Shown: one piece after another, positions 698 through 37,472 of the stretch
Layout of the letters: every line of letters starts with the position of its first letter
How positions within the stretch are numbered: position 1 is the stretch's first letter
Virus record (IMG/VR): IMGVR_UViG_2561511241_000010
DNA: 37,472 nt
Origin: a virus
Taxonomy: Duplodnaviria; Heunggongvirae; Uroviricota; Caudoviricetes
Reading direction: 5' to 3' (one strand)
The notes under the pieces: model-generated
The model's database searches: none
What the model was told of the DNA's origin: nothing
What the model saw: only the letters and a program-made list of their open reading frames with translations
Translations under genes and position numbers: made by a program

Positions 698-1060
698 GGG
701 GCTGATTCTGGATTCGACGGGATTTGCGAAACCCAAGGTGCATGCCGAGGGGCGGTTGGCCTCGTAAAAAGCCGCAAAAAATAGTCGCAAACGACGAAAA
801 CTACGCTTTAGCAGCTTAATAACCTGCTTAGAGCCCTCTCTCCCTAGCCTCCGCTCTTAGGACGGGGATCAAGAGAGGTCAAACCCAAAAGAGATCGCGT
901 GGAAGCCCTGCCTGGGGTTGAAGCGTTAAAACTTAATCAGGCTAGTTTGTTAGTGGCGTGTCCGTCCGCAGCTGGCAAGCGAATGTAAAGACTGACTAAG
1001 CATGTAGTACCGAGGATGTAGGAATTTCGGACGCGGGTTCAACTCCCGCCAGCTCCACCA
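698..1060 (+). ncRNA. ssrA: tmRNA (transfer-messenger RNA)
   Basis: Starts GGGGCTGATTCTGGATTCGACGGG and ends with tRNA-like GGTTCAACTCCCGCCAGCTCCACCA; internal tag frame 787..819 reads ANDENYALAA then TAA; 363 nt. Confidence 0.95.
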
Positions 1061-1640: not shown

Positions 1641-2909
1641 TTACGAACCAGATTCATTCTCCGCAGCTTCCAAAGCTTCTTCCTGTCGTTGATTCCATAC
1701 ACTGTTTTCAGGCATGTCGAGTCGCACATCGATCCAGCTATTGGCAGGAACATCTATAGGAGCCCCTTTCGTTTTAACAATTTCTCCTTCTTCGCTAAGT
1801 ATGTATTTGCGCTTAAAAAGCCGAATCGTCAGCCCACCGCTTTCTGTTTGCTCAGCTTCAACTACACCCAGTTCTCCCATTCCACCTGGGTCCATTGGCG
1901 GCAGCAGCTGCCAGCCTTCTGATGCCAGGCCTGCCGAACCAGTCAGCAAATAGATACCTACATCTAGCCGGGAAATTTTGATTCCCTCTGCCTCAGCATT
2001 AGCCGTACCGCATCCGCACCAGATAAAATCATTTTCATCAATATCTGTGCGCTGATTCTCGTTCTGAGATTTCACGATTCTGGCCACCGGCGAAGCTGCT
2101 TTCAGCGTGCCATCGGAGGCTTTAGTGGTATTTTCAGAAGTGTAAACAACTGAGCCTGGCTTCACAGACAGCATTGTTGAGAATGCATCGGTGCCATTAT
2201 TTCTTCCTGCAATCTGGTAAGAGACGGTACCACCAATCCCTGCGACACCTGCCCTGAAACGAGGAGTTCCGTTAACCATCACCGTATGAGCCCATACACT
2301 ACCAACAGTTGAAAGTCCTTCAACGGTGAAAGCGTAAGGGTTACCAGCGATACCGGCGATATTCAGGGCATTCGTTAACGTTCCTCCGCCAGTACCAAGA
2401 GCACCAAGTGCTGTTAGCGCTTCATTAGCTGTTTTCGCTCCCGTACCGCCCTGAGCGATGCTGAGAGCAGTTGTTAATCCGCTCAGGCTGGTAATGTCGC
2501 TGTTTGCCCCTTTCTTCGCCAGCGATTTCTGAGCCGGTACCGTGACGGCCACGCCGTTAATCGTGATAGTGACATCTGTAGTACCGTTCATCACATCAGC
2601 GAAGCCACTCATGTAACGCTGGTACATCGTGAACGTTTCAGCAATATCCTGTGCCAGGCCGTCAACGCTCAGGCTGTCGCTCAGAAGAATGGCGTATTTG
2701 GTTCCAGCTGGGATAGCAGGGCTTGCCGCTGGCGTAACGGTGAGACTGGTTGCGCTAACGATGGCGGTAATCTGAAAAACCTGCGCTGGACTGGTCATTG
2801 CAATAACTGTGCAGCCGTTGCGGATCAGAGAACCTGCGGCGGTAAAATTAGTACCTGTGCCGGTGATATTGTTACCACTAATAGCAATGGTGCCTGTTGT
2901 GTAAATCAT
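1641..2909 (-). CDS. Tail fibre protein
   Basis: 422 aa, Gly/Thr/Ala-rich repetitive N-terminal region typical of phage fibre shafts; last gene of the tail module; GAGGTAG ribosome-binding site. Confidence 0.6.
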   Translation of the reverse strand: MIYTTGTIAISGNNITGTGTNFTAAGSLIRNGCTVIAMTSPAQVFQITAIVSATSLTVTPAASPAIPAGTKYAILLSDSLSVDGLAQDIAETFTMYQRYMSGFADVMNGTTDVTITINGVAVTVPAQKSLAKKGANSDITSLSGLTTALSIAQGGTGAKTANEALTALGALGTGGGTLTNALNIAGIAGNPYAFTVEGLSTVGSVWAHTVMVNGTPRFRAGVAGIGGTVSYQIAGRNNGTDAFSTMLSVKPGSVVYTSENTTKASDGTLKAASPVARIVKSQNENQRTDIDENDFIWCGCGTANAEAEGIKISRLDVGIYLLTGSAGLASEGWQLLPPMDPGGMGELGVVEAEQTESGGLTIRLFKRKYILSEEGEIVKTKGAPIDVPANSWIDVRLDMPENSVWNQRQEEALEAAENESGS

Positions 2910-3035
2910 GAACTACCTCACGATAATAACGATCGTTAAAAGCGATCAATCATGTAAAATTGATCGCTCATATCAATCTGACTATTTTTTAAAATTAAAT
3001 AAAATGGAAGTTCCCGCATAAACAGGAATGTTGAA

Positions 3036-3398
3036 ATGAAACTTTTATTCGCTGCAGCGTTTTTGCTTGTGGCTGGATGTACGAACAAACACACAGATAA
3101 CGCATTCCAGATGGATTACCCGGTTGATGCCTCTCGTTTATCGCTCGGTGGTGATATTCACGTAAATATCGACTGTGCCACCAAAGAGGTGGAAGTTATT
3201 TCAGACAGTAGCAACGGAATATTCAGCCGCCATATAAAAAAAAGGTTAAGTAATATTTGCTACAATAAACCGGATAAGCTGGATGTCGTTTATCGCTTTA
3301 ATTCAGCAAAGGGCGTGAAACAAGATATGATTGCAACTCATTACCCACGAGTTCCTCCCGTGTCAAATCCCAACAAACTGAGAGATGGGGATTCTTAG
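3036..3398 (+). CDS. Lipoprotein moron, antisense to the tail operon
   Basis: N-terminus MKLLFAAAFLLVAGC is a signal peptide with lipobox; AGGAA ribosome-binding site; AT-rich upstream region; 3' end overlaps the convergent ORF 3363..4004. Confidence 0.6.
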   Translation: MKLLFAAAFLLVAGCTNKHTDNAFQMDYPVDASRLSLGGDIHVNIDCATKEVEVISDSSNGIFSRHIKKRLSNICYNKPDKLDVVYRFNSAKGVKQDMIATHYPRVPPVSNPNKLRDGDS

Positions 3399-4004: not shown

Positions 4005-4303
4005 TGAAAGTTATACACCTCCACATTGAGTGTGATCGCAGGACTGCCGGTTGAGGGCAAATAGTAAGCTGTAAAACCGCCATTATAGGCGCGGCAGTGG
4101 TATTCGTTGACAGTGACGCCAGTCGACACAATTGAGATGAATGAGCCATCCTGGGTTATCCCGACGAAGGAAACGTTTTTCGACGTTTCCCCCGCAGCGA
4201 ATGTTACTGAGGTGCTTCCGATATACCGGATGGCATAATCACTCAAATCAACCGCTATGCGCCCTGCACTGTCCCAGCATTGCAACCCCTGTGGCATTAC
4301 CAT
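4001..4303 (-). CDS. Hypothetical protein downstream of J
   Basis: 100-aa ORF overlapping the J stop (4297..4303) and the next ORF. Confidence 0.45.
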   Translation of the reverse strand: MVMPQGLQCWDSAGRIAVDLSDYAIRYIGSTSVTFAAGETSKNVSFVGITQDGSFISIVSTGVTVNEYHCRAYNGGFTAYYLPSTGSPAITLNVEVYNFQ

Positions 4304-7300
4304 AACCCCATTCTGACACGCAGTACGTTATTGCTGTCATAGATACGAATGAGAGTGCTGGTTATCAGCATCCTCCCGCCCCCGGCCACGCCGTTAATTT
4401 CGAACGTTCCACTCTTATCAAGCTTCCAGCCTGCAGAACCAGCCACATAGTTATTCGACTGGATATAGTTGCCGATTTTGGCATTGCTGATGGTCCCGTC
4501 ACCGATGACCGTATCCCTGATAATGGTTTGGCCATTCTGGATAACGAACGGGAGCGTAACATTACCGCCTGCCTGGGTCATGACAGCAAAACGGTCAGCC
4601 AGGAACAGAACCTGTGACTGCATGCCCTCTGGCGTATTCTGAACACCAATGCCCATTCCGGCTGCGTACTGGTTGCCATTAGAATCAACAGCTACCTTGA
4701 TGCTGTACATTGCATTCAGGTTGTTATTGATGTCGGCTGATACCTGGCTGTTCTGGACAATATCTGCAGACTGGCCGTTAACCGTGACCTTAAGCGAGTT
4801 AATTTGCGTCGCAGACGCCTGGGTGAAGTCAGCAAGTGTCTTCGACAAGTCAGTGACATTCGCTATGTTTCCACCGGCACTGGAATCTAGGGTACGCAAC
4901 GACTCAGCGACAGCCTTACTGGCTTCGGCCATGACATTGTCGACTCGCTCAATACCGGCTTTATTATCACCATACTGAACGCTCAGAAGGTTGCGCTGGT
5001 TAACCTGTGCGAGCGTGCTGGTTATCAGCGCGATGGCATTGTTTTGAATACCACCGTTGGCCTTATCCGTTCTTGCTGCCAACTCCTCCAGGCGGGACGC
5101 CACTGACGAAGTCGTGTCTGTGACAACCTGCCGCAGCGTGGTGATATCAGCAGTGTTTTGTGAGCTGGCTTGTTCAGCTGCGTCTGCCTTACCTGATGCA
5201 GCATCAGCTTTACTCGAAGCCGAATCAGCTTTATCAGAAATGACCTGAGTACTCGCAGTGAGCTGATCAACAGCAGTTGCCCTTGCCTGAGCTTCATCTG
5301 ACAGAGCCTGCCTTACCTCGGTAATTCCCGCTTCGTTCTGCGCTGTTTTTGCCTCAAGACGGATAACATCCGTTACGCGTGCCTCCGTCTCAGTAGCGAT
5401 AACCTCCCGGAGCTGTTCGAAAGTCGCAGAGTTAGCGCCCTGTTGGGCTGTCTGGCGCACGACAACATCGGCAATAGCCAGCGCGTTGCCGATGATTGCT
5501 TCTGCTGTCTGCTTATTCGAACCTACGGCGGCAGCCAGCCCATCGGCGTTCTCCTTAATTGCTTCAGAAAACTCGGCCAGTTTCTCGCTACTGTCTACAG
5601 CACTTTCAATCAGATCCTTAAATACCTCGGAATCTTTAATCTCCTCCAGGATCGCATCGGTGATATCGGATACATCGATGCTGGCCTGACCGCGCACAAA
5701 GTCTGTATACCCTGATTCGTTGCCGCTGCGGTCCACCAGCTGCGCGCGATACCAGAAAATCTGCCCAGCCTTAAGGCCCATCTGCTGATATTTGCGCTGC
5801 GGGTAAGGCACATCGGCCAGCAGTATCGCATCGTCTTCGGTACCGGTCAGGCTGTACTGAATTTCCGTCTTCAGCGTGTCGTCGGTATTCGCCGGGAATC
5901 CCCAGTTCAGCTCGATACCAAATACAACGTTTTCAGAAGCGATGAAGCCAACCGGCTTCGGTGGGCTGCCCACTTTACCCGTCAGCGTTTTCTCTTCTGA
6001 AGAGCCCCATCCGGAAGAAATTTCTGCGGCATTGATTGCGCGCACGCGCACCAGGTAGCGCCCTGCATAAATCCCCTGGACGTCGAATGATGTGGTGGAG
6101 CTGCGCGGCACGTTAACCCAGTTCCCGTCGTTGCGGCGCCATTGCGCTTCATAGGCGATAGCGTTCTGCGCCTGGTCCCAGCTCACGCGCATGGTCTCAA
6201 CGCTGATATTTTGCTGCACCACGGAAAACGAGCTGATCACGATGTTCGAAGGCGGCGACTGGTTACCCGGCGGGATTACACTCACCGGCCGCTGGTCGAT
6301 GATGGCTCCGGTATCGATGCGGGCATATTTATCCGGGTCGTGCCATGCGCCAGTAATCGAGAAAGTGCCATCATCCTTTTCGGAAACGCTGACAACACGA
6401 TACTGCTGCGCATAGAGCTCGTCAGATTCAACCACCCAAACAGCTTCGGCCTGTGGCGTCTCACTGTATGCCGTGGTGACTGTGACTGATTCCCCGTTTA
6501 CGGCCTGAATGGTCCTGCTCTGCGACACTCCGGATGGTAAGTTGAGAATAAGGCGATCACCTGCTGCTGCATCTGCCACGCGGTCAAGTTTGATAACGCG
6601 ACCGTTAACGGCGCTGATGCGGCCGCCCATAACCTTTCCGGAAAGCAGCTCGTCTGCCACGGCGATGATGTAGCCCGGCTGCGGAATGTTGCCGTCCAGC
6701 CCGACATCAAACGAAACAACACGATCCTTGTTGTTGGTGAGAATACCCCAGCGTCCCTTTCGGTTAGCTTCTGACTGCCTGGTGCAGCCGATGGCTGTCA
6801 TTTCCAGCTGATTGAAGCCGTACCGCGCCACCAGCGCCTGCTCAAATACCGGCTCCATCGCGTCGGCATAAGCGTTCCCCGGATCTGACCATGAAACCAG
6901 TGCTGTGGTGTAGCGGCTTTTCGTGGTGCTGCTCGAATAGGTGAAGCGACCGCCAACAACGTTAGCGCGCGTGTAGCTGTAATCAACATCGCGCGGCATG
7001 TCAGCCAGGGCCACAATCTGATCCCCGCCCCAGTAGGTCATGCCACGGAAGATAGCGGCAAAATCACGCAGGACTGTGTAGGCGTCGTTCCGGTCCTGAA
7101 TGTACACGTTGCAGGTATAACGTGGTTCGGTACCGTTGCCCCCTTTGCCGTCTGGTACCATCTGATCACAATACTGGGCAACCTGATAAAGCGTCCATTT
7201 ATCAATATTCGCAGCGGTCAAACGGTGCCCGAGGCCGAACCGGTCAGAAACAACCAGATCGTAAAAAATCCACGCAGGGTTATCCGTCCATGCCCACTTA

Positions 7301-8121
7301 AACGCACCGGTCCATGTACCGCTATAAGTGCGGGTTTCAGGGTCGTAGGTATCTGGAACGCGGATAACGCGGCCGCGGGGCTCGCAGGAGATCTGAGGGA
7401 TAGAGCCGTTAAACTGGCTGGAATCGAATTCGATGTAGAGTAACGCTGTGTTTGGATATCGTAACTTGGCGTCAATCACCTCAGTGAAGCTCTGCAGCGT
7501 CATCGTGTCGCCGATCTTCGCGCTGTTGGCATCAGAGGTAATCTTAGGCAGACGTATTGTCCAGGTGCTGCCAGCCTGCGGTAAATCAATGCGGTGGCTG
7601 CGCTCATAACCAGACGTCGTTTTGCCGGTCACGCTGGTATTGAGTACCGTCTGCCATGTGCCGCCGTCCGTCTGCAGGTCAATCGCATAATTGACCGAGT
7701 AACCCACCAGATCACCGTCGTCCTCCTGTTTGAAAAGCGAGGGCCATTTCAGACGCAGGCGAACTGCTGAAAGCTGCGTATTGGTAAAGGTGCGCGTCCA
7801 TGCTGTAGCGCTTGATACCTCAGTTCCTACGCTGATTTCGTTTTCGGTACCGGGAATACCCTGAATATATTTTTGGGCCTGCGTTCCCGCGCGAAACTCC
7901 CACGTTACGCCGCTGAAGTTTTGGGAGCCGTCAGCATTCTCCAGGGCTGTTCCGTCCAAATAGATATCTTTGCCGGTTAGCTGCCCTGCAAACTCCCCTT
8001 CGCCAAGCGCAACGAGGATTTTTGCCTTCGCTACAGATTGCAGATCATCAGGCTGTTCGGTAGGGGTTCGTGAACTGGAGCTGCCGCCCTTGCGGCCCTT
8101 TAACACTTTATCTGTAGCCAT
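4297..8121 (-). CDS. J: Host specificity / central tail fibre protein J
   Basis: 1274 aa; N-terminal region resembles lambda gpJ; follows the I-K-L-M order. Confidence 0.9.
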   Translation of the reverse strand: MATDKVLKGRKGGSSSSRTPTEQPDDLQSVAKAKILVALGEGEFAGQLTGKDIYLDGTALENADGSQNFSGVTWEFRAGTQAQKYIQGIPGTENEISVGTEVSSATAWTRTFTNTQLSAVRLRLKWPSLFKQEDDGDLVGYSVNYAIDLQTDGGTWQTVLNTSVTGKTTSGYERSHRIDLPQAGSTWTIRLPKITSDANSAKIGDTMTLQSFTEVIDAKLRYPNTALLYIEFDSSQFNGSIPQISCEPRGRVIRVPDTYDPETRTYSGTWTGAFKWAWTDNPAWIFYDLVVSDRFGLGHRLTAANIDKWTLYQVAQYCDQMVPDGKGGNGTEPRYTCNVYIQDRNDAYTVLRDFAAIFRGMTYWGGDQIVALADMPRDVDYSYTRANVVGGRFTYSSSTTKSRYTTALVSWSDPGNAYADAMEPVFEQALVARYGFNQLEMTAIGCTRQSEANRKGRWGILTNNKDRVVSFDVGLDGNIPQPGYIIAVADELLSGKVMGGRISAVNGRVIKLDRVADAAAGDRLILNLPSGVSQSRTIQAVNGESVTVTTAYSETPQAEAVWVVESDELYAQQYRVVSVSEKDDGTFSITGAWHDPDKYARIDTGAIIDQRPVSVIPPGNQSPPSNIVISSFSVVQQNISVETMRVSWDQAQNAIAYEAQWRRNDGNWVNVPRSSTTSFDVQGIYAGRYLVRVRAINAAEISSGWGSSEEKTLTGKVGSPPKPVGFIASENVVFGIELNWGFPANTDDTLKTEIQYSLTGTEDDAILLADVPYPQRKYQQMGLKAGQIFWYRAQLVDRSGNESGYTDFVRGQASIDVSDITDAILEEIKDSEVFKDLIESAVDSSEKLAEFSEAIKENADGLAAAVGSNKQTAEAIIGNALAIADVVVRQTAQQGANSATFEQLREVIATETEARVTDVIRLEAKTAQNEAGITEVRQALSDEAQARATAVDQLTASTQVISDKADSASSKADAASGKADAAEQASSQNTADITTLRQVVTDTTSSVASRLEELAARTDKANGGIQNNAIALITSTLAQVNQRNLLSVQYGDNKAGIERVDNVMAEASKAVAESLRTLDSSAGGNIANVTDLSKTLADFTQASATQINSLKVTVNGQSADIVQNSQVSADINNNLNAMYSIKVAVDSNGNQYAAGMGIGVQNTPEGMQSQVLFLADRFAVMTQAGGNVTLPFVIQNGQTIIRDTVIGDGTISNAKIGNYIQSNNYVAGSAGWKLDKSGTFEINGVAGGGRMLITSTLIRIYDSNNVLRVRMGLW

Positions 8122-8829: not shown

Positions 8830-9162
8830 TCAAAGGCATGATCTGGCAGCCGTAGCCCAGTGATCGTTCCATCCTTTTGCGACGGCGTAAACTTTAACAT
8901 CGCTTCCGCCTGCTTCTGATTTATCGATATTCACCACTGAAAGGGCGCCGAAAATATCGTCTGATGCTGTTATTTTGTAACCTGACTCAGTTGGTATGCT
9001 GGAGCTTGAAGATCGAAGCTCCACCCATTTAGGGGCCAGGCATCTGTTAACCTGATCTGCACTCTTTGAAGTGTGTTCAGAAAGAATAGGCTTTTGGGAT
9101 TCGAGGGAGTTTACAGAGCAGCCAGCCAAACCAATAACTAGCACCAAGAATAGCTTTTTCAT
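8830..9162 (-). CDS. Lipoprotein inserted between tail genes K and I
   Basis: Internal start MKKLFLVLVIGLAGC gives signal peptide plus lipobox; GGAG precedes ATG 9168/9162; the longer table ORF (to 9330) would overlap K and is rejected. Confidence 0.55.
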   Translation of the reverse strand: MKKLFLVLVIGLAGCSVNSLESQKPILSEHTSKSADQVNRCLAPKWVELRSSSSSIPTESGYKITASDDIFGALSVVNIDKSEAGGSDVKVYAVAKGWNDHWATAARSCL

Positions 9163-10999: not shown

Positions 11000-13900
11000 T
11001 TATCGGGTTCCTTTCATTGCGTTCCAGATGTCGCCGCCGGGACGAATGTCACGCATCACATTCTGCTTATAACGTCGATCAACAAATTCCCCGACCTCGG
11101 CACCAAATTGCTCAAGGCCTGGAGAGGCCTGAGTTTGAGTGTTGCCGTTGCCATCGATGGTGATATAAACCTGTGGCGCCGAAGATACAGACTGACCGCC
11201 GCCACCTCCGACCGCACGAACGCCGAGAGAACCATCCGGCGCGCGGGTAAGCGGCATGATCGCCTCAGGCCCAGCCTCGCCCATGATTCCGGCACCGCCT
11301 TTTGCGAAAGCGAACATGGTGGGGTTTCTGACGATCCCATTACTGAAAGCGCTCAGAGAGGGGGAGTCATAAACGCCGCCTTTGGCGTTAAACTGGAAGT
11401 TCGATCCGTAACTGGAAACCGCCGTACCGGTGCTGGCTGATGCTCCCGCACCGCCCCCGAAGAAGCTGCCTACACTGCCGATGAGAGAGCCAAAGATGCC
11501 AGAACCGGAAGAGGCCCCACCCATCGCGCTAACCACCGCCATCTGCAGAGCCACTTTTTCGATAATCTGCAGGACAGAAATACCCCACGATTTCCAGCTA
11601 ACCTTATTGCCTTCTAGCATTGAGGTGACGTTACCAAACGCGCTGTCGAGTGTGGTTTTCACCCCATCAGAAACCGTGCCGGATACGTTACTGATTTCAT
11701 CAAACCAGTTTGCATAGCCGCGTGATACTCCGGACATCCAATCCGCTTCAGCTGCTGCAATAGCCTTGTATTTCTTATCCAGAGCATCGAGGGCTGCGGC
11801 GCGCTGCGCGATGGCCTCGGTCCCGCCGTCCGTTTTAGCAAAAACACGGTCGATCTGTTGCGTCTCGTCGAACCGGCTGCGCTGGCGATCGCTCATGCCT
11901 GCAGTTTCGGTTGTCAGCGTCGCCTCATCCCTGAACTTTCTGGCCGCTTCAGTTAAATCCTTCAGGGCATCAGCTTGTTCGCGCTGCTTGCGCACGTTCT
12001 CGTCGGCTTTTTGCGTCCATTTTGCCAGCTCTGCTGATGATGCCTGGATCGCCCTGCGCTGCTCGTCGGTCCATTTAGTGCCTGCCTGGTGCGATGCAGC
12101 GTAAAGCTCCGAGGCTTTTTCGCCTTCCGTGGCCCGAACGCGTTGCACGTCAATAGCCACGCTCAGATCGGCCATTTTCCGGGAATACTGTTCGGCGGTG
12201 CTGGCCGCTTCGCGCTCGGCTTTACTCTGCGCATTTGAGGCAGCAGTGGAGGTTTTTTTTGCTTCTGCAGCTGCTGCATCCTTTTTGGCTGCCTGATCCT
12301 TGTTGTAGATGTACTGTGTATAAAGCGCCCCCGTCAGCTTCAGGTCTTCTGCTTCGTAGACGTGCTGCTGATGGAGTTTCTCTAATCCGCTTAAGCTGGC
12401 CAGCTCATTATCGCGACGCGAGCGCTCCAGTGCAGTTTGCTGTTGAGGCGTTGCGTTCGCCAGAGAGACAACTGGCCCGGCATACTGCGGCGGCTTCGCG
12501 CCAGCGGTCGCAGACATTGAGCGGTTAAGCAGGTCATACGCACCTTTCAAGATAGAGACTGCGCCAGCCTGTTCGATAGCCTTTTGCGTGGCCAGATCGC
12601 TGGCATTGTTTACCAGTTTCTGCGTTTGCTCGACTTTTGAGGCTGCCTGTTCGCGCTGGTACTCCAGCTGGTTCAGCTTATCGGTCAGCTCGATGTTTTT
12701 GGCCATGATGTCGGCCTGGCCCATGAAAGTGTTAATCAGGGTCAGCGTCGGATGGCGGTTGTAGTCCTGCTGGATTTGGTCAACCGCCTTAAGGCTGTCT
12801 TTCACCTTCGCGATCTGAGAGTCGAGGTCGGCCAGGTCCTGTTTTTGCGCCTGTAAAGATGTACGGGCATCGGCCGCGGTCGAACGCAGGCCAAGCACCG
12901 ACATCTGCTGGAGCTTGGTGTTGATCTCGTCGAGGTTGTTGGCAAAACCTACCGCCTCACGGTGCACCTGCTGGGTATGCTGATACAGGCCATACATCGC
13001 AGCGCCGGCACCGATAATCACTCCAGGCCAGCCCCCGAGAATACCAAGAACGCCACTACCCAGGCGGGACATCACTGAGGCTGTATTGGTGAGGTTATTA
13101 ACGGCCGAAGTCCTGCCAGCAAGCGCCGTATTCAGTGATGCCTGAGCAGCAGCAAGATTACGCTCAGCGACAATCTGAGCCTCAATACTCGTCGCCGCTG
13201 CACGCGCCTGTTGAGCGCGGTAAACAGCCTGGCGACCAGCAGCAACGCTAACCTGAGCTCCACGGACCTGAGCCTGCGCCAGCGCGACCTCGGCGGCCGT
13301 ATTAGCGAGAACTGCCCGGGTTGACTGAGCAACGCTGCCGACCATGTTGCCAAAATAACGAGCGAGGCCAACACCAACCAGAATACCGGCTGTATTTGCC
13401 ACATCATCGATGTTATTCGCCAGGCCATCCAGCACGCCGGAAAGCGTTGATGATGCGCCGACCGCATCGTTCGCCCCGCCAACCCATGCAAGGAAGGCGT
13501 TTTGCACTTTCTGTGCAGATCCGCTGATGGATGCAGGAAGGGTGTCGAATTCTTTACGCAGGATCTCGACATTGGTCAGCAGCGGGACGATCTTGTTTGT
13601 CGTCAGTTCGCCGTTGTTGGCCATATTTCGCAGGCCACCAACAGTGGTACCCAGCCCATCAGCCAGCAGTTTCGCCAGGCGGCCGCCGTTCTCCATGATG
13701 GAGTTAAATTCTTCGCCTCGCAAAACGCCTGAGCCAAGCGCCTGGCTAAGCTGGGTGATAACAGAGCTCGCCTCTTCGGTACTGGCGCCAGACAGCTTCA
13801 GTGAGGTTGCTACGGTTTCCGTAACTTTTGCGACGTCAGCAGAAGCGTAACCGGCATCACGCAGGGACTGTGCAATTCTGCTGTACAGATTGCTGTTTGC

Positions 13901-14281
13901 CTCGAGGGATGTTCCGGTGCGCTGGCTAATTTCCATCAGCACGCGCTGGGATTGCACGTAATCCTCACTGGAAGAGGACGCAAGGCGAAGACGCCCATTC
14001 AACTGGTTCCACGTGTCGGCAAACTGAATCAGCTGATGTGTGGCAAATGCACCAGCCCAAGCACCGGCAAGCCCGGCAGCAGAAGATCGCACGGTTGCAA
14101 GCTGAGAATTCAGGTCAGCCAAAGACCGCTGAGTTTCACGCGTGGCCGCTGCAGCTTTTTTCCCGCCCTGTTCCATAGTGCGGTAGTAATCGGTTCCCAT
14201 ACGGGACGCTCTGGCGATCTCTGACTGGAAAGAAGAAGAGTTCGCCGAAATTTTGATGATTAGCTCGCGCAGCGTTGCCAT
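11000..14281 (-). CDS. Tail tape measure protein
   Basis: 1093 aa, Ala/Gln-rich coiled-coil character with Gly-rich C-terminal part; lies between G/T and M. Confidence 0.9.
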   Translation of the reverse strand: MATLRELIIKISANSSSFQSEIARASRMGTDYYRTMEQGGKKAAAATRETQRSLADLNSQLATVRSSAAGLAGAWAGAFATHQLIQFADTWNQLNGRLRLASSSSEDYVQSQRVLMEISQRTGTSLEANSNLYSRIAQSLRDAGYASADVAKVTETVATSLKLSGASTEEASSVITQLSQALGSGVLRGEEFNSIMENGGRLAKLLADGLGTTVGGLRNMANNGELTTNKIVPLLTNVEILRKEFDTLPASISGSAQKVQNAFLAWVGGANDAVGASSTLSGVLDGLANNIDDVANTAGILVGVGLARYFGNMVGSVAQSTRAVLANTAAEVALAQAQVRGAQVSVAAGRQAVYRAQQARAAATSIEAQIVAERNLAAAQASLNTALAGRTSAVNNLTNTASVMSRLGSGVLGILGGWPGVIIGAGAAMYGLYQHTQQVHREAVGFANNLDEINTKLQQMSVLGLRSTAADARTSLQAQKQDLADLDSQIAKVKDSLKAVDQIQQDYNRHPTLTLINTFMGQADIMAKNIELTDKLNQLEYQREQAASKVEQTQKLVNNASDLATQKAIEQAGAVSILKGAYDLLNRSMSATAGAKPPQYAGPVVSLANATPQQQTALERSRRDNELASLSGLEKLHQQHVYEAEDLKLTGALYTQYIYNKDQAAKKDAAAAEAKKTSTAASNAQSKAEREAASTAEQYSRKMADLSVAIDVQRVRATEGEKASELYAASHQAGTKWTDEQRRAIQASSAELAKWTQKADENVRKQREQADALKDLTEAARKFRDEATLTTETAGMSDRQRSRFDETQQIDRVFAKTDGGTEAIAQRAAALDALDKKYKAIAAAEADWMSGVSRGYANWFDEISNVSGTVSDGVKTTLDSAFGNVTSMLEGNKVSWKSWGISVLQIIEKVALQMAVVSAMGGASSGSGIFGSLIGSVGSFFGGGAGASASTGTAVSSYGSNFQFNAKGGVYDSPSLSAFSNGIVRNPTMFAFAKGGAGIMGEAGPEAIMPLTRAPDGSLGVRAVGGGGGQSVSSAPQVYITIDGNGNTQTQASPGLEQFGAEVGEFVDRRYKQNVMRDIRPGGDIWNAMKGTR

Positions 14282-27959: not shown

Positions 27960-28381
27960 AGGTACTGATCCAGTGGAAGCTGCAGCGCCTGAGCGATTTT
28001 CTTCAGCTGTTTCTCTTCTTCTTCACCGATCCCGTCGTTGTCAGCAACATCGAGACACAGGCACAGAACGTCAACAGCATCATTTGTACCGGCAACGTCA
28101 GCCAGCTCGCGCAGCGCCTGAGCATTAGCGGAGCGCGGCGAGGCTTCGTAGCGCGCGCGAATGTTGCTGCTCATCTGCGCAATTTCTCCGGCGAATGGTG
28201 CGAAGGCAGGCAGTGCCGAAATGGTTTTTTCCAGCGTGGCGATTTCTTTCGCATCGCAGGTACCATCGGCATACGCAATGGAGTAAGCGCCCCATACAGT
28301 CGCCTCAACCGCATCGCGGTTTTCCATTTTCTTAACTTCAGTAACGGCTTTACGAGCTTTCTTTTTGAAGATACCGAACAT
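27956..28381 (-). CDS. TerB-like (tellurite-resistance TerB family) protein
   Basis: 141 aa; helical pattern with acidic C-terminus (DNDGIGEEEEKQLKKIAQAL) resembling TerB-domain proteins. Confidence 0.45.
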   Translation of the reverse strand: MFGIFKKKARKAVTEVKKMENRDAVEATVWGAYSIAYADGTCDAKEIATLEKTISALPAFAPFAGEIAQMSSNIRARYEASPRSANAQALRELADVAGTNDAVDVLCLCLDVADNDGIGEEEEKQLKKIAQALQLPLDQYL

Positions 28382-29437: not shown

Positions 29438-30405
29438 GCGGCCACCTGCTGTTTTTTATAGAAAACCAGCTCACGAACCTGATCGCCGTTCATGAGCATA
29501 TTGTTGAAATCATCGTGATCCGGCCAGTACACGCTCACGCGCTGCAGGTCATTTTTAGCCATCAGATTTGCGTGAGCGCATTCGCAGGCAGCAGCTAAAC
29601 CCGTAGCGCTTGTCTCGTCGCGGTCGGCAAAAATAATCAGATGCTTAACGCCTGCCGGGACCCGGAATTTCTTCATAAAATTGGCGGTCATAGTCGCCCA
29701 GGTATTCACTTTGTAAATCTGATGTGCAGACAGCGCAGTTTCGATACCTTCAGCGATGCCAAGTGTGCTGGCGACCGGGAACATACGGATAGCGACCGAA
29801 CGAGCGTGATCAAGATAGTTATCTTCCTGCAGCGATTTCTGCCGCTTGGCGCTGGCCCCGATGTCAGCTTTCTTTGCACCATCCAATAACGTCTGATGGA
29901 GGTAACACAGCTCCCCTTTATCGTCTGTTGCCAGTGAATAAATAGACTGGTATACCCGTCCGTTATGCCGTTGCTTGGGGTTGAGTCGCACGGCCTCAGC
30001 CGGAAGCTGATAAATACCGCGTGAATTCAGGTATTCAGCGCCGGATGTACCGCGCAGAGGAGACATTTTTGCAAAGTTGTTGAGTACCTTTCTCCGCAGC
30101 TTGGAGGCGTCGCTAGTCTCGGGAACTTTGTCACGTCTGAACGTATTGCCGATCAGTGCATCGATTTCGCGGCAAACCTCGTTGAATGGTTTGCCCTGGG
30201 TTTCGGTAACCAGCTTAAGCCCGTCACCGCTGCCACAGGTGCAGATCCATGTTCCCGCGCCGTCGCGGTTATCGATGCGGAACTTTCCAATCGAATCACA
30301 CAGCGGGCACTTCCCCTTAAAGTGATTTTTACCGGTGATCGGCGGCAGTCCGTAATGCTCAAAAATCATGGCCCAATGGCCTTTTGCTGCTTCTACCGTT
30401 TTCAT
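29434..30405 (-). CDS. DNA primase (zinc-ribbon plus Toprim)
   Basis: N-terminal CPLC...WICTCGSG zinc ribbon; Toprim-like IAEGIETALS...IIFADRDE. Confidence 0.75.
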   Translation of the reverse strand: MKTVEAAKGHWAMIFEHYGLPPITGKNHFKGKCPLCDSIGKFRIDNRDGAGTWICTCGSGDGLKLVTETQGKPFNEVCREIDALIGNTFRRDKVPETSDASKLRRKVLNNFAKMSPLRGTSGAEYLNSRGIYQLPAEAVRLNPKQRHNGRVYQSIYSLATDDKGELCYLHQTLLDGAKKADIGASAKRQKSLQEDNYLDHARSVAIRMFPVASTLGIAEGIETALSAHQIYKVNTWATMTANFMKKFRVPAGVKHLIIFADRDETSATGLAAACECAHANLMAKNDLQRVSVYWPDHDDFNNMLMNGDQVRELVFYKKQQVAA

Positions 30406-32021
30406 GCTCGTTTTCCTAACTGCTGTCTGATATCACTGACGCGATTAAGCGCCTGCTGAATTCTTTCCTGGGTAGGCAGCTCTTCTACCTGTGCCTGCTG
30501 GCGCTGCTCTTTTTCGATTCGTCTAGCGAAGCTGATCCGCTTGTGCGTAATGAAGTTTGAAACTGTTGGCGTGATGTCCATCGGGTAATCGCTCAGTCCG
30601 TTCGGCCATTCGCCAAAACGTTCGCGGAAGGTGTGAGCACACCAGGCATCGCTGACAGGCTTTTTCCCCAGCGATACGCGCTGGCGCTGATAGAATTTGA
30701 TCTGACTCCACCAGGCTTGTTTCTCTGCCTTCGTCGGCTGGCGCTGCTCGCCCCCAAGTTTTTTGAGTTTTCGCCCGGTGTCGGTATCAATGTCCTCACC
30801 GGCAAGCGGCTTGTGGCCACATTTAGGGCAGACATAGACGCCAGCAGGCTTCATGAAGTGGCATTGCGAGCATTCGTGAGGCAGCTTTTCTGCTCGTTCC
30901 TCAGCTGCGCGGCGCGCGCCCTCCTCCATCCCGTCTGATTTACCCGGAAGATCGTCATATTCGATAGAGTCCGGATAACCTAGGCGGTGCACGGTTCCGC
31001 TGTGATCGAAGATGAGGCAGGACTCTTTACCCGGAGCGGTGCGCAAGCCACGCCCGAGCGCCTGCAGCCAGCGAATTTCGCTCTTAGTTGGCCTGGCGTA
31101 GATGATGCAGCGAACATCGCTGTCGAAACCGGCAACCAGCACCCCTACACTGACGATGATTTTTGTGGCGCCAGTTTCGAAGCGGTGAATGATGGTTTGG
31201 CGTTCTTCCGCAGGCGTATCTGCAGTCATAACCTCTGCATTTACGCCAGCTTGGTTAAACTGAATAGTCAGAAAATTAGCGTGGTCTACGTTGACGCAGA
31301 ACGCGATTGTCGGCAGGTCCCGGCCGTTCTCCAGCCAGTTTTGGACGATATCGCCCACCAGCGTTGAACCGCACATGATCTCCGCCAGCTGCGCCTCGTT
31401 GTAGTCGGTACCGTACTGCAGGGACGGAGAGGTTTTAACCCCTTTCAGATCCGGCTTTGTGGGCGCGTAAAATTCGTATTTGCTCAGGTCGCCGCGCTGG
31501 ATCAGCTCGCCGATGGTGGTTGGCTTAATCAGTCGATCATAGTATTTTCCCAGGAACGGGGAAAACGGTGTCCCCGACAGGCCGATCACTTTCACGCCTT
31601 TTTCGCGCAGGCGTTCGATATCCTGCAGGATGCGTTTTTTCCGCAGGTGAGCTTCGTCGATAATCAGCAGATCGATATTGTCAGGAAACACGCGACGAAT
31701 AAGCGTATCGGCGCTGGCAATTTGTATTTTGAGGGAAGGATCATAGTTTGGGTGATCCGCCCATACATAGCCGATTTCATCACCCGGCAACCCATACTCC
31801 ACAAAACGGTTTGCTGTTTGGGTTATGAGGATCTGGTAAGGCGCGCAAAACATTACACGCATGCCACGACTAACGAACCCAGCAACGATGAAGGCGGCCA
31901 GTCCTGTTTTACCGCTGCCCGTCGGCGAGTACACCATGAAGGTTTCTGTATCCTTCCAGTTACGGCGCAGCTGGTTAAGTGCTCGTTCCTGTGCAAAATT
32001 CGGTGTGATCGTCAGCTGCAT
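30402..32021 (-). CDS. Superfamily 2 DEAD/DEAH-box helicase
   Basis: Walker A SPTGSGKT, DEAH box (LIIDEAH), C-terminal CSQCH...CPKCGH zinc-finger-like motif. Confidence 0.85.
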   Translation of the reverse strand: MQLTITPNFAQERALNQLRRNWKDTETFMVYSPTGSGKTGLAAFIVAGFVSRGMRVMFCAPYQILITQTANRFVEYGLPGDEIGYVWADHPNYDPSLKIQIASADTLIRRVFPDNIDLLIIDEAHLRKKRILQDIERLREKGVKVIGLSGTPFSPFLGKYYDRLIKPTTIGELIQRGDLSKYEFYAPTKPDLKGVKTSPSLQYGTDYNEAQLAEIMCGSTLVGDIVQNWLENGRDLPTIAFCVNVDHANFLTIQFNQAGVNAEVMTADTPAEERQTIIHRFETGATKIIVSVGVLVAGFDSDVRCIIYARPTKSEIRWLQALGRGLRTAPGKESCLIFDHSGTVHRLGYPDSIEYDDLPGKSDGMEEGARRAAEERAEKLPHECSQCHFMKPAGVYVCPKCGHKPLAGEDIDTDTGRKLKKLGGEQRQPTKAEKQAWWSQIKFYQRQRVSLGKKPVSDAWCAHTFRERFGEWPNGLSDYPMDITPTVSNFITHKRISFARRIEKEQRQQAQVEELPTQERIQQALNRVSDIRQQLGKRA

Positions 32022-32449
32022 TGTGCGGACCCCGCGGTGATGAGATAATAATTCTGTGATGTGGTTTTCATGGATTCCCCCTCACATGGCTGGTGGCCTC
32101 CCCAAAGGCTGCCAGCCTCCCTTCTGATTCAGCTCCCCTGAAAAAATCACTCTTCCAGAAAGAACCCTTTTTGTTTCTCAGCGCCTGAGCGCCTTGTACT
32201 GGTTTGCTGATACGGGCGTTTTTTTAATTGCGCCCTTAAGACAGTGATCTACTTAACCAATGGATCTCTCCTGTTGGAAAAGACCCTGTTCCTACCCCTA
32301 CACCCAATCCCCCCTTACCCCCCTTTCCCTCTTCCCCATAAAAACGTACTACTTACCTAGTACGAACGGAGAATTGAGTCAGTGGGTTGCCAACCTGAAC
32401 AGGCACCTTTAAGCCTGTTTTTGTCCGGGTACCTTTAAACCCACAACAA

Positions 32450-32752
32450 TCAGGAACGCGGTGACGTTCCGGCCAGGGGAGGTTCGGCGGTATACCCCTG
32501 TAAAGCCCTGCCGTGATTTCTCACAAACAGGCGAAGCCGCATATTTGCTTCATGCCTTGCCCGGTTCTCCTTGCGGTATGAAACGGGCTCGGCTTCGAAC
32601 GATTCCTGATACACAGCTGCATAACGCTGAATGGCTTTTTGTCGTGCTGCTGGCGTCAGGCTCAGTAACTGCTGCTTGATCCATTCTTCATCTGCAGATG
32701 CGTAAACAGATGGGAGCAGACCGTGATCAGGCCTCATCCCGTGCAACGTCAT
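32450..32752 (-). CDS. Hypothetical protein in the cII-equivalent position
   Basis: Start chosen at Met 32752 (GAGG ribosome-binding site) rather than the table start, which would overlap cro; about 100 aa with a basic C-terminal part. Confidence 0.4.
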   Translation of the reverse strand: MTLHGMRPDHGLLPSVYASADEEWIKQQLLSLTPAARQKAIQRYAAVYQESFEAEPVSYRKENRARHEANMRLRLFVRNHGRALQGYTAEPPLAGTSPRS

Positions 32753-32948
32753 CTGAAAATACCTCGTCCAAACTTGTATCCAGGCCAAGCTGTTTAAACG
32801 CGCTGACGATCCGCTTTCCTACTGCAACATCAGGAATCCTTCTTCCTGTTTCGTAGTGGCTAACGGCCCCCTGAGAGCTATCAATCAGCGCGGCCAGCTC
32901 TCCCTGAGTTACCTTTGCTTTGCGTCTAAGGCTCTTGATTCCACTCAT
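32727..32948 (-). CDS. cro: Cro-like HTH (XRE-family) regulator
   Basis: Helix-turn-helix segment VTQGELAALIDSSQGAVSHYETG; divergent from cI across an operator region. Confidence 0.7.
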   Translation of the reverse strand: MSGIKSLRRKAKVTQGELAALIDSSQGAVSHYETGRRIPDVAVGKRIVSAFKQLGLDTSLDEVFSDDVARDEA

Positions 32949-33045
32949 TCGTTTAGTCCCGCATAAATAATACATAACGTACTATACACACTTACAAGAA
33001 TAATACAAAATGGAAGTTGCTCACTAAATACGGAATGTAATAATC
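32949..33045. promoter_or_regulatory. OR-like divergent promoter/operator region between cro and cI
   Basis: AT-rich 97 bp with motifs AATACATAACGTA (32969..32981) and AATACAAAATGGA (33002..33014), both recurring inverted near 33813..33850. Confidence 0.55.
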
Positions 33046-33714
33046 ATGGCTATGAAACAGAGATGGCAGGACCTGGCCAAAACCAGGATGAAAGAAGTCG
33101 GCATGACTCAAGAACAGCTGGCAGAAGCGCTCGGCATAACGCAGGGCGGGCTAGGCCATTGGTTAAATGCCAGACGTGAACCGAACCTAGAGGTTATAGC
33201 GAAGATTTTTAACATATTGAAAATGCCCGGCTTCGTAGTAAACGCTGACGGCACGGTCAGCGACTCAAGAGCCGATCACAATGTAAGTTTTAATAGCATT
33301 AACGAATCCAAAGGAAGTTACCCTGTTATAAGCTGGGTTAGCGCTGGAGACTGGATGGAAGCAGTAGAACCTTATCACCGTAGAGCGATAGATCGCTGGT
33401 ATGACACCACCGTTGAATGTTCAGAGGATTCGTTCTGGTTAGACGTCAGAGGCGATTCCATGACATCACCAGCAGGGCTGAGCATACCGGAAGGGATGGT
33501 GATACTTGTCGATCCCCAAGTGGAAGCAATCAACGGAAAATTGGTTGTAGCGAAACTTGACGGTGACAATGAAGCTACATTCAAAAAGCTTGTTATCGAT
33601 GCCGGTCAAAGATTTCTAAAACCCCTCAACCCCCAATACCCAATAATCCCAATCAATGGCAACTGCCGTATTATAGGGGTTGTGGTCGACGCAAAAATCA
33701 CCAACCTTCCGTAA
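33046..33714 (+). CDS. cI: CI-like repressor (HTH plus S24 LexA-like peptidase domain)
   Basis: N-terminal helix-turn-helix (MTQEQLAEALGITQGGLGHW); C-terminal GDSM serine motif and downstream lysine, as in LexA/CI autocleavage domains. Confidence 0.9.
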   Translation: MAMKQRWQDLAKTRMKEVGMTQEQLAEALGITQGGLGHWLNARREPNLEVIAKIFNILKMPGFVVNADGTVSDSRADHNVSFNSINESKGSYPVISWVSAGDWMEAVEPYHRRAIDRWYDTTVECSEDSFWLDVRGDSMTSPAGLSIPEGMVILVDPQVEAINGKLVVAKLDGDNEATFKKLVIDAGQRFLKPLNPQYPIIPINGNCRIIGVVVDAKITNLP

Positions 33715-33718
33715 ATTG

Positions 33719-33741
33719 GCCGCGAAAGCGGCTTTTTTTTT
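33719..33741 (+). terminator. Rho-independent terminator after cI
   Basis: GCCGC-GAAA-GCGGC followed by TTTTTTTTT. Confidence 0.65.
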
Positions 33742-33799
33742 GCCTTCAACACCCTCCATGCAACTAAAAAAACTTGAAAAACAAAACGATGTAAAATAA

Positions 33800-33850
33800 T
33801 ACACTCAAATACTCCATTTTGTATTGATCTTATTTAATACGTTATGTATT
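33800..33850. promoter_or_regulatory. OL-like operator/promoter region
   Basis: Contains inverted copies of the two OR motifs: TCCATTTTGTATT (33813..33825) and AATACGTTATGTATT (33836..33850). Confidence 0.45.
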
Positions 33851-33884
33851 GTTTATGCATTGGCGGATTAATGGAGTGCAAAAG

Positions 33885-34199
33885 ATGAGTACAGAGAAAT
33901 TTTTTCAACTTGTAGATATTCCCGATTACCGTTTCTCTTCTGATAAAGAGAAATGTCAAAACATTGATTTCGATAAAATTGCTACTGACTGCGATACGAA
34001 AACAACCTCTATTTTAGAAGCCATCAATCATATAGGGATTAGCATAATGAGTGAGGTTGAAGAAAAGAACTTAGATAAAAACAAAATAATGATGCTTTCT
34101 GGTGTGATTGCAGACCTCGCAGAATTAGCAATGGCTACCAATAAAATAGCTAACTCAGCAACATATTCCTCCGGTTATAAGGACGCAAAAAATGTCTGA
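33885..34199 (+). CDS. Hypothetical protein, AT-rich early-left gene
   Basis: Start at ATG 33885 (GGAG 8 nt upstream) preferred over 33849; about 104 aa; low GC. Confidence 0.4.
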   Translation: MSTEKFFQLVDIPDYRFSSDKEKCQNIDFDKIATDCDTKTTSILEAINHIGISIMSEVEEKNLDKNKIMMLSGVIADLAELAMATNKIANSATYSSGYKDAKNV

Positions 34200-34380
34200 T
34201 ATCACTTTGCAAAAAGCGGCATCAAAGGCTTACCAGGCTGAGATTGTTGCGAGGATGCTTGAGAACTACCCTCATAAACTGACCGACTCAGATGTGGAAT
34301 CCGTCGCATCACTTTTGGCGGATCTCATTGGCCCGGTTGCGGCTTACCTTATTGAGCAAGAGTCTAAAAACCCGGCTTAA
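34192..34380 (+). CDS. Hypothetical small protein
   Basis: 62-aa ORF overlapping the previous stop (ATGTCTGA coupling). Confidence 0.4.
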   Translation: MSDITLQKAASKAYQAEIVARMLENYPHKLTDSDVESVASLLADLIGPVAAYLIEQESKNPA

Positions 34381-36146: not shown

Positions 36147-36345
36147 TTGCGTACCTCTTTCAACCTACTGCCGGGACGCCGGAGAAACGGTTGAAGCCGT
36201 TAACAAACGGATACAAAGGGGGTTATGGAAAGAGGGTGTCCATGTATTAAAAGTCGATGGCGTTAAAGAACGCTGGATAGACTTAACGGAGGTTTCAAAG
36301 TGGGCAAGAAAGAACAAGGATCATTATCTCTCCCAAGAGGAGTGA
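36136..36345 (+). CDS. xis: Excisionase
   Basis: Start at internal Met 36136 (GGGAGG ribosome-binding site); 69 aa; resembles lambda Xis in its winged-helix segment; overlaps the int start. Confidence 0.6.
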   Translation: MSLDCVPLSTYCRDAGETVEAVNKRIQRGLWKEGVHVLKVDGVKERWIDLTEVSKWARKNKDHYLSQEE

Positions 36346-37472
36346 CCATTCGCCAGCATAAAACTGGCGATACCCTGGTGATCACATTCACCTACAAGGG
36401 GGTTCTCTGCCGGGAGCCCCTTTCCAGAATGGAAGCAAACGCGCGCGGCGTGAAGTATGCCGAGCGCCTGCTGGGGGAGATACAGAACCAGATCGCCGGC
36501 GGCACATTCGATTATGCGAAATACTTCCCCACCTCCAAAAAACTGGAGCTGTTCGGGGTAGTGAAGAAAACCAAAAATATTAAGTCCTACCTGGACGAGT
36601 ATCTGAAAATCTGCCAGAACCGCAACCTTTCGCCGTCCACTATTGGCGGTTATGAAAAGTGCCTGTCTGCGCTATCTGCGCTGCACAAAATGCATGTCTC
36701 GGAACTGACCCCTGCGGTCCTCAAAAACTGGATCGCCAGCAGAAAAACAAAGCTGAAAACGATCAGGAATAACCTCTCGTTTCTGCGCAGCGCCATAGAT
36801 GAAGCGGTGACAGACGGCCTGCTGACTATCAACCCGGTAACCCTTGTCAGCGCGAGTCGGTACCACGTGATCGACAGCAGCCCGAATAGTGACGATTACG
36901 AAGTTGATCCGTTCACACCAGCGGAAATCAGCGCTATTTACCAGAGCTGCAGATACCAAGAGTGGGAAAACCTGTTCCGTTTCGCATTCAATACTGGTTT
37001 ACGCAGCTCTGAGCTGTGTGCGTTGCGCTGGCCTGATCTCGACAATATCGCTAAAACAGCTCACGTTCAGGCGGCAAGTGTTGTTGGCGTTCTGAAAGGT
37101 ACCAAAACAAAAGCCGGTACCCGTAAAGTAGAATTAAACAGCGAGGCGCTGGCCGCGCTGCAGACGCAGAAACAATTCACTTTCATGAAAAGCGAGTTTA
37201 TTTTCAGCGATCCCAAAACGGGTGAGCCCTGGGCGAACGCCGACGCGATACGAAAAAAAGCATGGGTGCCAACCCTCAAAAAAGCTGGCGTTCGATACCG
37301 TAACCCGTACCAGACCCGCCACACATTCGCCACCAGACACATTAGCCAGGGCGTAAACCTTTTCTGGCTTGCCGGGCAGATGGGGCATAAAGGGCCGGAA
37401 ATGCTGTTCCGCAATTACGGTAAATACCTGGCTGAATACGACGGGAAAACCGCCATTTCTGCAGCTCTGTAG
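36300..37472 (+). CDS. int: Tyrosine integrase
   Basis: 390 aa; C-terminal catalytic region with RHTFATRHISQG and LAGQMGH...Y motifs; stop codon is the last three bases of the window. Confidence 0.9.
   Translation: MGKKEQGSLSLPRGVTIRQHKTGDTLVITFTYKGVLCREPLSRMEANARGVKYAERLLGEIQNQIAGGTFDYAKYFPTSKKLELFGVVKKTKNIKSYLDEYLKICQNRNLSPSTIGGYEKCLSALSALHKMHVSELTPAVLKNWIASRKTKLKTIRNNLSFLRSAIDEAVTDGLLTINPVTLVSASRYHVIDSSPNSDDYEVDPFTPAEISAIYQSCRYQEWENLFRFAFNTGLRSSELCALRWPDLDNIAKTAHVQAASVVGVLKGTKTKAGTRKVELNSEALAALQTQKQFTFMKSEFIFSDPKTGEPWANADAIRKKAWVPTLKKAGVRYRNPYQTRHTFATRHISQGVNLFWLAGQMGHKGPEMLFRNYGKYLAEYDGKTAISAAL

Follow-up and report, generated by a model that had tools for sequence, protein, structure and literature searches.

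The subject of this report is the immunity region of a prophage contained in a 37,472-nt stretch of viral DNA (Caudoviricetes; IMG/VR record IMGVR_UViG_2561511241_000010), the whole of which we refer to as the window. The region is built around two divergent genes separated by a gap of 97 nt: a cI-type repressor gene on the plus strand (33046-33714) and a cro-like gene on the minus strand (32727-32948). The repressor, of 222 amino acids, combines a helix-turn-helix (HTH) in its N-terminal part (Pfam HTH_3, 9e-12) with a self-cleaving S24 domain in its C-terminal part (Peptidase_S24, 3.3e-30), and is assigned to PHROG 4, transcriptional repressor. Its residues 8-215 align with the lambda repressor (PDB 3bdn, E 1.7e-38), and on this alignment the protein is a full-length lambda cI homologue: its segments VSAGDW, GDSM and FKKL fall on the A111-G112, S149 and K192 regions of lambda cI, which puts Ala100-Gly101 at the lambda cleavage site and Ser138 and the Lys180/181 pair opposite the catalytic residues. 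The cro-like protein (73 amino acids) is of the HTH_3/XRE type (Pfam HTH_3, E 1.3e-10) and is labelled an HTH regulator or Cro in the annotations of relatives. The cI transcript is followed on the plus strand by an intrinsic terminator (33718-33742), a GC-rich stem at 33718-33733 and then T9, whose stem is kept in relatives.

Five 15-bp dyads of the kind AATAC-N5-GTATT lie on the two sides of cI. Three are found between the cro-like gene (minus strand) and cI (plus strand), and form the putative right operator (OR): OR1 (AATACATAACGTACT, 32969-32983), which adjoins cro; OR2 (AATACAAAATGGAAG, 33002-33016), strong in its left half and weak in its right; and OR3 (AATACGGAATGTAAT, 33027-33041), a site absent from the first-pass annotation of this DNA. 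The other two, forming the putative left operator (OL), lie past the cI terminator and ahead of a plus-strand early operon that ends in int: OL2 (ACTCCATTTTGTATT, 33811-33825), the inverted counterpart of OR2, and OL1 (AATACGTTATGTATT, 33836-33850), a perfect 5+5 dyad and the inverted counterpart of OR1. The centre-to-centre spacing is 33 bp for OR1-OR2 and 25 bp for both OR2-OR3 and OL1-OL2. The first-pass annotation had reported that two 13-mers of the cro-cI gap, AATACATAACGTA (32969-32981) and AATACAAAATGGA (33002-33014), recur as reverse complements just after the cI terminator. All four motifs can be read in the sequence, and the list of open reading frames, the Pfam domains and the terminator scan agree with the gene context described for them; the exact reverse complement of the second is TCCATTTTGTATT at 33813-33825, and that of the first is TACGTTATGTATT at 33838-33850, the earlier range of 33836-33850 being that of the full OL1 dyad. 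Each 13-mer makes up most of one 15-bp dyad. These repeated motifs are very probably the operators of a lambda-type lysogeny switch.

Scored with a 15-nt position weight matrix (PWM), the five sites reach 16-23 bits, OL1 being the best site in the window (23.3), OR1 the second best (20.7) and OL2 scoring 18.5, and the next best in 37 kb reaches 9.7; the window has no other strong site of this kind. The two clusters also predict each other: with only the OR sites in the matrix, OL1 comes out first in the window and OL2 fifth, and with only the OL sites in it, places three to five go to OR1, OR3 and OR2. Chance similarity would be easiest to imagine in AT-rich intergenic DNA, which both regions are, and the window does hold four other loose AATACN5GTATT matches (AATACNNNNNGTATT, with at most one mismatch, occurs seven times against 0.6 expected, and three of the seven are in the immunity region). 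Those other matches, however, reach at most 7.7 bits on the full matrix, and when the two intergenic regions (97 and 171 nt) were simulated with a composition-matched, first-order Markov model, 8 of 20,000 region pairs contained an exact inverted match of at least 13 nt, or about 4e-4 for one match. Two independent 13-mer matches are present, and the similarity is therefore far beyond chance; given also the strong conservation footprint described below, we consider a chance origin next to impossible.

The loose matches outside the immunity region, at 4951, 13382, 30013 and 34648, were rejected as operators on their full-matrix scores. Two of them, AATACCGGCTTTATT (4951-4965) and AATACCGGCTGTATT (13382-13396), match AATAC-N5-GTATT, resemble each other and sit inside the two largest minus-strand open reading frames (4297-8121 and 11000-14281); both are probably due to chance. 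The best operator-like site outside the region is the 9.7-bit CATACGCAATGGAGT (28270-28284), located between a Q-like antiterminator gene and the late genes, which, far below the five real sites, is taken as another chance match.

Searching other prophages for the same operator motif, as had been proposed with the first annotation, yields the exact OR1 sequence in 41 viral contigs from public collections, and the OR1 block also retrieves loci in Enterobacter soli, Citrobacter braakii and Pseudescherichia. The immunity region is 99.9% identical to that of the Escherichia coli ETEC1749 prophage, about 94.5% identical to those of seven Klebsiella phage records, and 78% identical to that of the E. 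coli DX6 prophage, in which the operator blocks are unchanged and the flanking non-coding DNA has diverged. Conservation was measured on 34 distinct 1-kb immunity regions that are 77-98% identical to the window, excluding from the test OR1 and all other positions of the search pattern, since retrieval fixes them. At OR2, OR3, OL1 and OL2, 90% of positions are invariant; in the rest of the non-coding DNA the share is 34% (Mann-Whitney p 4e-12, a value that overstates independence, the sequences being related). The conservation footprint over the sites is clear, and the changes within them fall at central positions or in weak halves: OR2 is identical in 28 of the 34 relatives and differs at one base in the remainder, OR3 varies only at central positions, OL1 is identical in 32 of 34, and the strong half of OL2, TTTTGTATT, is invariant.

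In two of these prophages a gene is annotated as frameshifted, namely the cro-like gene of DX6 (retrieved locus 2976-3199) and the helicase gene of ETEC1749 (1704-3322); some copies of the prophage group therefore appear to be decaying, with operators and cI intact.

Relatives of the DNA-binding domain were found by tblastn with cI residues 1-70, and include the L/ST64T, Stx2 II and epsilon34 group (43-57% identity, E 1e-14 to 1e-19). Identity over the N-terminal domain is 55-57% for ST64T/L, SEN22 and mEp554, 53% for Stx2 II, Nil2, 2851 and 1717, 46% for Vibrio phages and 43-44% for epsilon34, and stands at 59%, 39% and 44-54% for phages of Enterobacter, Erwinia and Pseudomonas, respectively. 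The cI-cro gaps of these relatives carry the same kind of dyad in the same layout, and three sites stand beside homologous repressors in ST64T/SEN22, Stx2 II, the Erwinia phage Midgardsormr38 and the Pseudomonas phage CF127a. Where all three sites scored, OR1-OR2 is 32-34 bp and OR2-OR3 is 25-26 bp (33/25 in the window, 34/26 in ST64T, 32/26 in both Stx2 II and Midgardsormr38); the OR1-OR3 span is 58-59 bp in Pel, BHUENT6, epsilon34 and CF127a, and OL1-OL2 is 25 bp in ST64T and the Vibrio phage Pel. The OR2 sites of all relatives pair a strong inner half with a degenerate outer one, the latter lying next to the repressor-maintenance promoter (PRM). N-terminal homology and OR layout together place the window repressor within a group whose operators are of the form (A/T)(A/T)TAC-N5-GTA(A/T)(A/T). 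The nearest full-length tblastn matches, those of Gally and VSe13 (about 60%), were set aside as guides to specificity: they have only the C-terminal domain in common with the window protein, their repressors are P22-type C2 proteins, and their intergenic regions carry P22-type TTAAG operators.

Among these phages the half-site appears to covary with the recognition helix of cI. The helix xQGx[L/I/V]GHW goes with AATAC in the window, ST64T/SEN22 and Stx2 II/Dewey; TKGAVSHW goes with TATAC in epsilon34/SPN9CC, Midgardsormr38 and BHUENT6; xQ[G/S]x[V/I]AHW goes with ATTAC in Vibrio Pel and the Pseudomonas phages phiPSA1 and CF127a; and TQGAVGHY, with Y for the final W, goes with AATAC in EhrS_49. 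Such covariation links the motif to that helix of cI. The sequence of a site does not name its binder, and both cI and the cro-like protein carry an HTH_3 domain, which leaves room for a reading in which the cI-like repressor has no part and the sites bind Cro only, or another regulator from phage or host. Yet the covariation with the cI helix holds across Cro types, including the lambda-type Cro of EhrS_49, and the window's own Cro shares the helix pattern of cI, for which shared sites are the simplest account: the two are 28% identical over the cI N-terminal domain (BLASTP, E 1e-8), and the Cro recognition helix SQGAVSHY parallels TQGGLGHW of cI, with Q-G-x-x-x-H common to helix 3 of both. 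The use of the same sites by cI and Cro would fit this homology. As regards other regulators, no LexA-box-like sequence (CTGT-N8-ACAG, at most one mismatch) is found in 32900-33900. Binding by Cro alone or by an unrelated regulator is thus, in our judgment, very unlikely.

The Erwinia phage vB_EhrS_49 (retrieved locus 294-332) carries its AATAC-N5-GTATT dyads at a lambda-like 24-bp spacing and has a Cro of the lambda fold (annotated pfam09048), while in this small sample the 33/25-bp layout accompanies HTH_3-type Cro proteins.

The inverted repeats around cI extend beyond the 13-mers, a repeat search lengthening the first pair to 24 nt with 92% complementarity (32961-32984 and 33835-33858) and the second to 19 nt with 89% (32996-33014 and 33813-33831). 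Lambdoid immunity modules are known to be exchanged, and 24-nt inverted repeats some 850 bp apart around a single gene could be the ends of a mobile or recombining cI cassette, whether mosaic junctions or terminal inverted repeats. Such an origin is nonetheless extremely unlikely: clade identity, 78% or 95%, is even across cro, cI and their flanks and shows no step at the repeats; the internal copy OR3 and the fixed 25-bp and 33-bp spacings are needless for cassette ends; and the domain and PHROG assignments give no transposase gene in the stretch from cro to int. A role of the 24-nt repeat in RNA structure was rejected on its geometry, as the cI terminator lies between the arms and the PRM start would lie downstream of OR1 and OR2, and therefore no normal transcript should contain both arms.

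A relaxed hexamer scan returns candidate promoters that reach only about 8 of 12 matches and all overlap the sites, and that we treat as putative. The early-left promoter, PL, is most plausibly TTGATC-17-TATTGT on the plus strand (33824-33852, 8 of 12), with its -35 at 33824-33829, which OL2 overlaps by 2 bp, and its -10 at 33847-33852, which OL1 covers together with the spacer; an alternative on the same strand (33774-33800) pairs TTGAAA at 33774-33779 with AATAAT at 33795-33800 across 15 nt. On the minus strand, the first candidate for PR (32981-33008) has the -35 TTGTAT (33008-33003), 16 nt and the -10 TATAGT (32986-32981), the last lying within ACTATACAC, a block whose invariance in relatives extends beyond OR1; the alternative (32967-32997) has TTGTAA (32997-32992), 19 nt and TATTAT (32972-32967), and coincides in position with the better promoters of ST64T and Stx2 II. 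OR1 overlaps the -10 hexamers of both. The candidate PRM (33017-33044, plus strand) has a -35, TTGCTC, that abuts OR2 and, 16 nt on, a -10, AATAAT, lying inside and just past OR3, and its geometry recurs in ST64T, Stx2 II and Midgardsormr38. An ATG follows 6-7 nt past a PRM-like -10 overlapping OR3 in all seven related phages compared, which suggests that the cI mRNA is leaderless, as in lambda; in the window the ATG at 33052 (protein start MKQRW) fits the leaderless spacing better than the annotated ATG at 33046.

The overlap of candidate -10 hexamers with OR1 and OL1, and the extension of the 24-nt repeat past the dyad into TTTATGC, would also be expected if the inverted sequences were duplicated PR and PL elements, promoter plus initial transcript, kept for RNA polymerase. 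This explanation is compatible with that of operators, which overlap promoters by design, and as a replacement for it has very little chance of being right: OR2 and OR3 carry the same dyad and are not at equivalent promoter positions, the sites have an internal two-fold symmetry that promoters do not need, the half-site follows the repressor's recognition helix across phages, and the promoter matches are weak.

The identification of the motifs as OR and OL operators, already made in the first-pass annotation, is borne out by the agreement of the 15-bp dyads, cross-prediction, conservation, cI homology and the layout in relatives; none of the computational tests able to contradict it did so. 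The features by which a lambda switch is recognised in sequence are present, namely a self-cleaving HTH/S24 repressor, a divergent cro, dyads at OR and a cluster at OL; what the sequence comparisons show directly is the presence and symmetry of the sites, the way they are conserved and predict one another, and the homology of the proteins. Several points weigh against this identification. A standard sigma-70 scan of 32600-34300 finds no promoter at threshold, and PR and PL each have two alternative candidates, and all the promoter hexamers are weak; a plausible PL candidate does fall near 33800-33850, where the earlier annotation had placed the early-left promoter. OR2 and OL2 have one good half-site each. 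No convincing third OL site was found at the two places examined: at 33797-33811 (AATACACTCAAATAC) only the left half matches, mean conservation is 0.77 and AATAC becomes AACAC in the close relative ST11-VIM1phi8.3, and at 33781-33795 two acceptable halves and good conservation are both lacking. The conservation of OR1 in the 34-sequence set is by construction, the loci having been retrieved with a pattern that covers OR1. The correlation of helix and half-site comprises about seven immunity types, a small sample. Finally, our literature search found no biochemical study of operators in the L/ST64T-Stx2 II-epsilon34 group, nor any other experimental work on operators in the wider set with the Erwinia, Vibrio and Pseudomonas phages, and in the publication that describes the closest Klebsiella phages (PMC7371120) neither 'operator' nor 'repressor' occurs.

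From this arrangement we infer binding, promoter positions, activation and cooperativity in the following scheme. A dimer of the repressor would bind the 15-bp AATAC-N5-GTATT dyads, and the Cro-like protein probably binds the same ones. Occupation of OR1/OR2 and OL1/OL2 by repressor would keep the lytic promoters PR and PL silent in the lysogen. These promoters would be directed away from cI, one to each side, each with its strongest operator nearest the transcription start, which would account for the inverted arrangement. Repressor bound at OR2, which abuts the candidate PRM -35, could activate PRM, and at high concentration repressor could curb cI synthesis from OR3, which overlaps the candidate -10 of that promoter. 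RecA-stimulated self-cleavage at Ala100-Gly101 after DNA damage would lift the repression. In mechanism there is nothing here beyond the lambda paradigm: this is an ordinary lambdoid immunity region, and predictions of similar sites already exist for related Salmonella and Shiga-toxin (Stx) phages.

A more ambitious combination of proposals, which we hold to be rather unlikely, is that the window, L/ST64T and Stx2 II/Nil2 prophages partly cross-repress, that cooperativity or looping departs from that of lambda (a family-wide OR1-OR2 spacing of 33 bp, or about three helical turns, and a two-site OL only 850 bp away), and that the recognition helix follows a code. The shared AATAC and xQGx[L/I]GHW are the reason that prophages of different hosts and backbones might partly cross-repress. 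In the apparent code one residue would correspond to one base: the half-site (AATAC, ATTAC or TATAC) would go with the residues found at helix position 6 (G, A or S) and position 2 (Q or K). Such a code, if true, would make immunity groups predictable from sequence.

The surroundings of the region resemble those of a lambda prophage, the gene layout being its mirror image. The early-left operon begins with a gene for 104 amino acids (33885-34199, plus strand; PHROG 2583; GGAG 8 nt upstream) and consists of small plus-strand genes without assigned function through to int (36300-37472), which runs off the window end. The minus-strand genes left of cro include one of PHROG 852 and those for a DEAD-box helicase, a toprim primase and the Q-like antiterminator. 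A gap of about 430 nt without an open reading frame of at least 60 amino acids (32022-32449) separates the helicase gene (30402-32021, minus strand) from the PHROG 852 gene downstream of cro, and could hold a replication origin or regulatory elements. An Rfam search of the whole window matched only the transfer-messenger RNA (tmRNA), with no match in the immunity region.

That tmRNA gene, ssrA (698-1060, plus strand), follows a 160-amino-acid open reading frame (1-483) at the window start. Its last 27 nt, CGGGTTCAACTCCCGCCAGCTCCACCA (1034-1060), recur about 130 nt beyond int in the ETEC1749 prophage (retrieved locus 8906-8932), next to ypjA; on this evidence the prophage is integrated at the ssrA 3' end, with tail genes beside ssrA and int at the far end, and the second att copy lies just outside the window. 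In E. coli the prophage sits at ssrA.

What these results offer is a definition of the likely immunity specificity of a widespread group of prophages of about 38-40 kb, with close relatives in E. coli, Klebsiella, Enterobacter, Citrobacter and Pseudescherichia, and five concrete sites for predicting which prophages exclude one another. They also place the group in a larger set of lambdoid repressors that includes those of L/ST64T, Stx2 II/Nil2 and epsilon34 as well as Erwinia, Vibrio and Pseudomonas phages.

Compared with lambda itself, the window has a repressor homologous over its full length with the self-cleavage residues kept, cI and cro divergent around three operators, a second operator cluster beyond cI, ahead of the operon that leads to int, a mirrored order of the operators at its two promoters, a probably leaderless cI mRNA, and a weak middle operator abutting the PRM -35, reminiscent of the weak OR2 of lambda, which is filled cooperatively and activates PRM. 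The differences are several. The operators are 15-bp AATAC-N5-GTATT dyads, whereas those of lambda are of the 17-bp TATCACCGCCAGTGGTA type; OR1 and OR2 are 33 bp apart and not 24; only two OL sites are convincing; OL and OR are separated by about 850 bp, in contrast to about 2.4 kb, and the interval lacks rex-like genes; Cro does not have the lambda Cro fold but is an all-helical HTH_3 protein with homology to the N-terminal domain of cI; and the left operon has no recognisable N-like gene.

Phage 933W, whose repressor is biochemically the best studied among Stx phages, likewise has a lambdoid cI and 15-bp operators around a central base pair, with five operators in all (PMC3317979, Figure 1 legend). 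Its operator core, with G-C at position 2, A-T at positions 3 and 4 and C-G at position 5 (PMC3317979), differs from that of the window, its repressor is only about 35% identical to the window cI over the full length, and its operators have been studied biochemically, whereas the window sites are known from sequence alone; on account of the core, 933W was rejected as a match in specificity. The repressor gp46 of the Salmonella phage epsilon34 (also SPN9CC) has a homologous N-terminal domain, 43-44% identical to that of the window. An operator consensus, WTACRAWWTGTAT, has been predicted near PL and PR of epsilon34, and the N-terminal part of gp46 is about 50% identical to its counterparts in L, VT2-Sa and Nil2 (Villafane et al. 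2008; PMC2629481). Its helix TKGAVSHW goes with a TATAC/GATAC half-site and not AATAC, and epsilon34 is predicted to have an immunity specificity distinct from that of the window.

The repressors of Stx2 II/Nil2/2851 (also Dewey) and the C2 protein of the Salmonella phages L/ST64T (also SEN22) have AATAC and xQGx[LI]GHW in common with the window. Identity between the domains is only 53-57%, and the operators differ in their central bases. The Stx2 II group has an N-terminal domain 53% identical, with the helix TQGGIGHW, and its OR sites AATACAATATGTACT, AATACACATTGTGCA and AGTACAGAGCGTAAT are 32 + 26 bp apart; the Stx2 II GenBank record marks 17-mers at homologous positions as putative operators, with PR and PRM. 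Stx2 II differs in being an Stx-converting lambdoid phage with an O/P-type replication module, and a simple scan found no clear OL pair within 550 nt downstream of its cI. L/ST64T differs from the window in its P22-like Lederbergvirus backbone, in three OL-like sites, in the central operator bases, and in the presence of a CII/C1 gene and the N-like gene 24. The OR sites of ST64T, AATACATTTCGTACT, AATACAATATGTGTG and AATACATCTCGTAAT, are nearly the same as those of the window and are spaced by 34 + 26 bp, with OL sites 25 bp apart.

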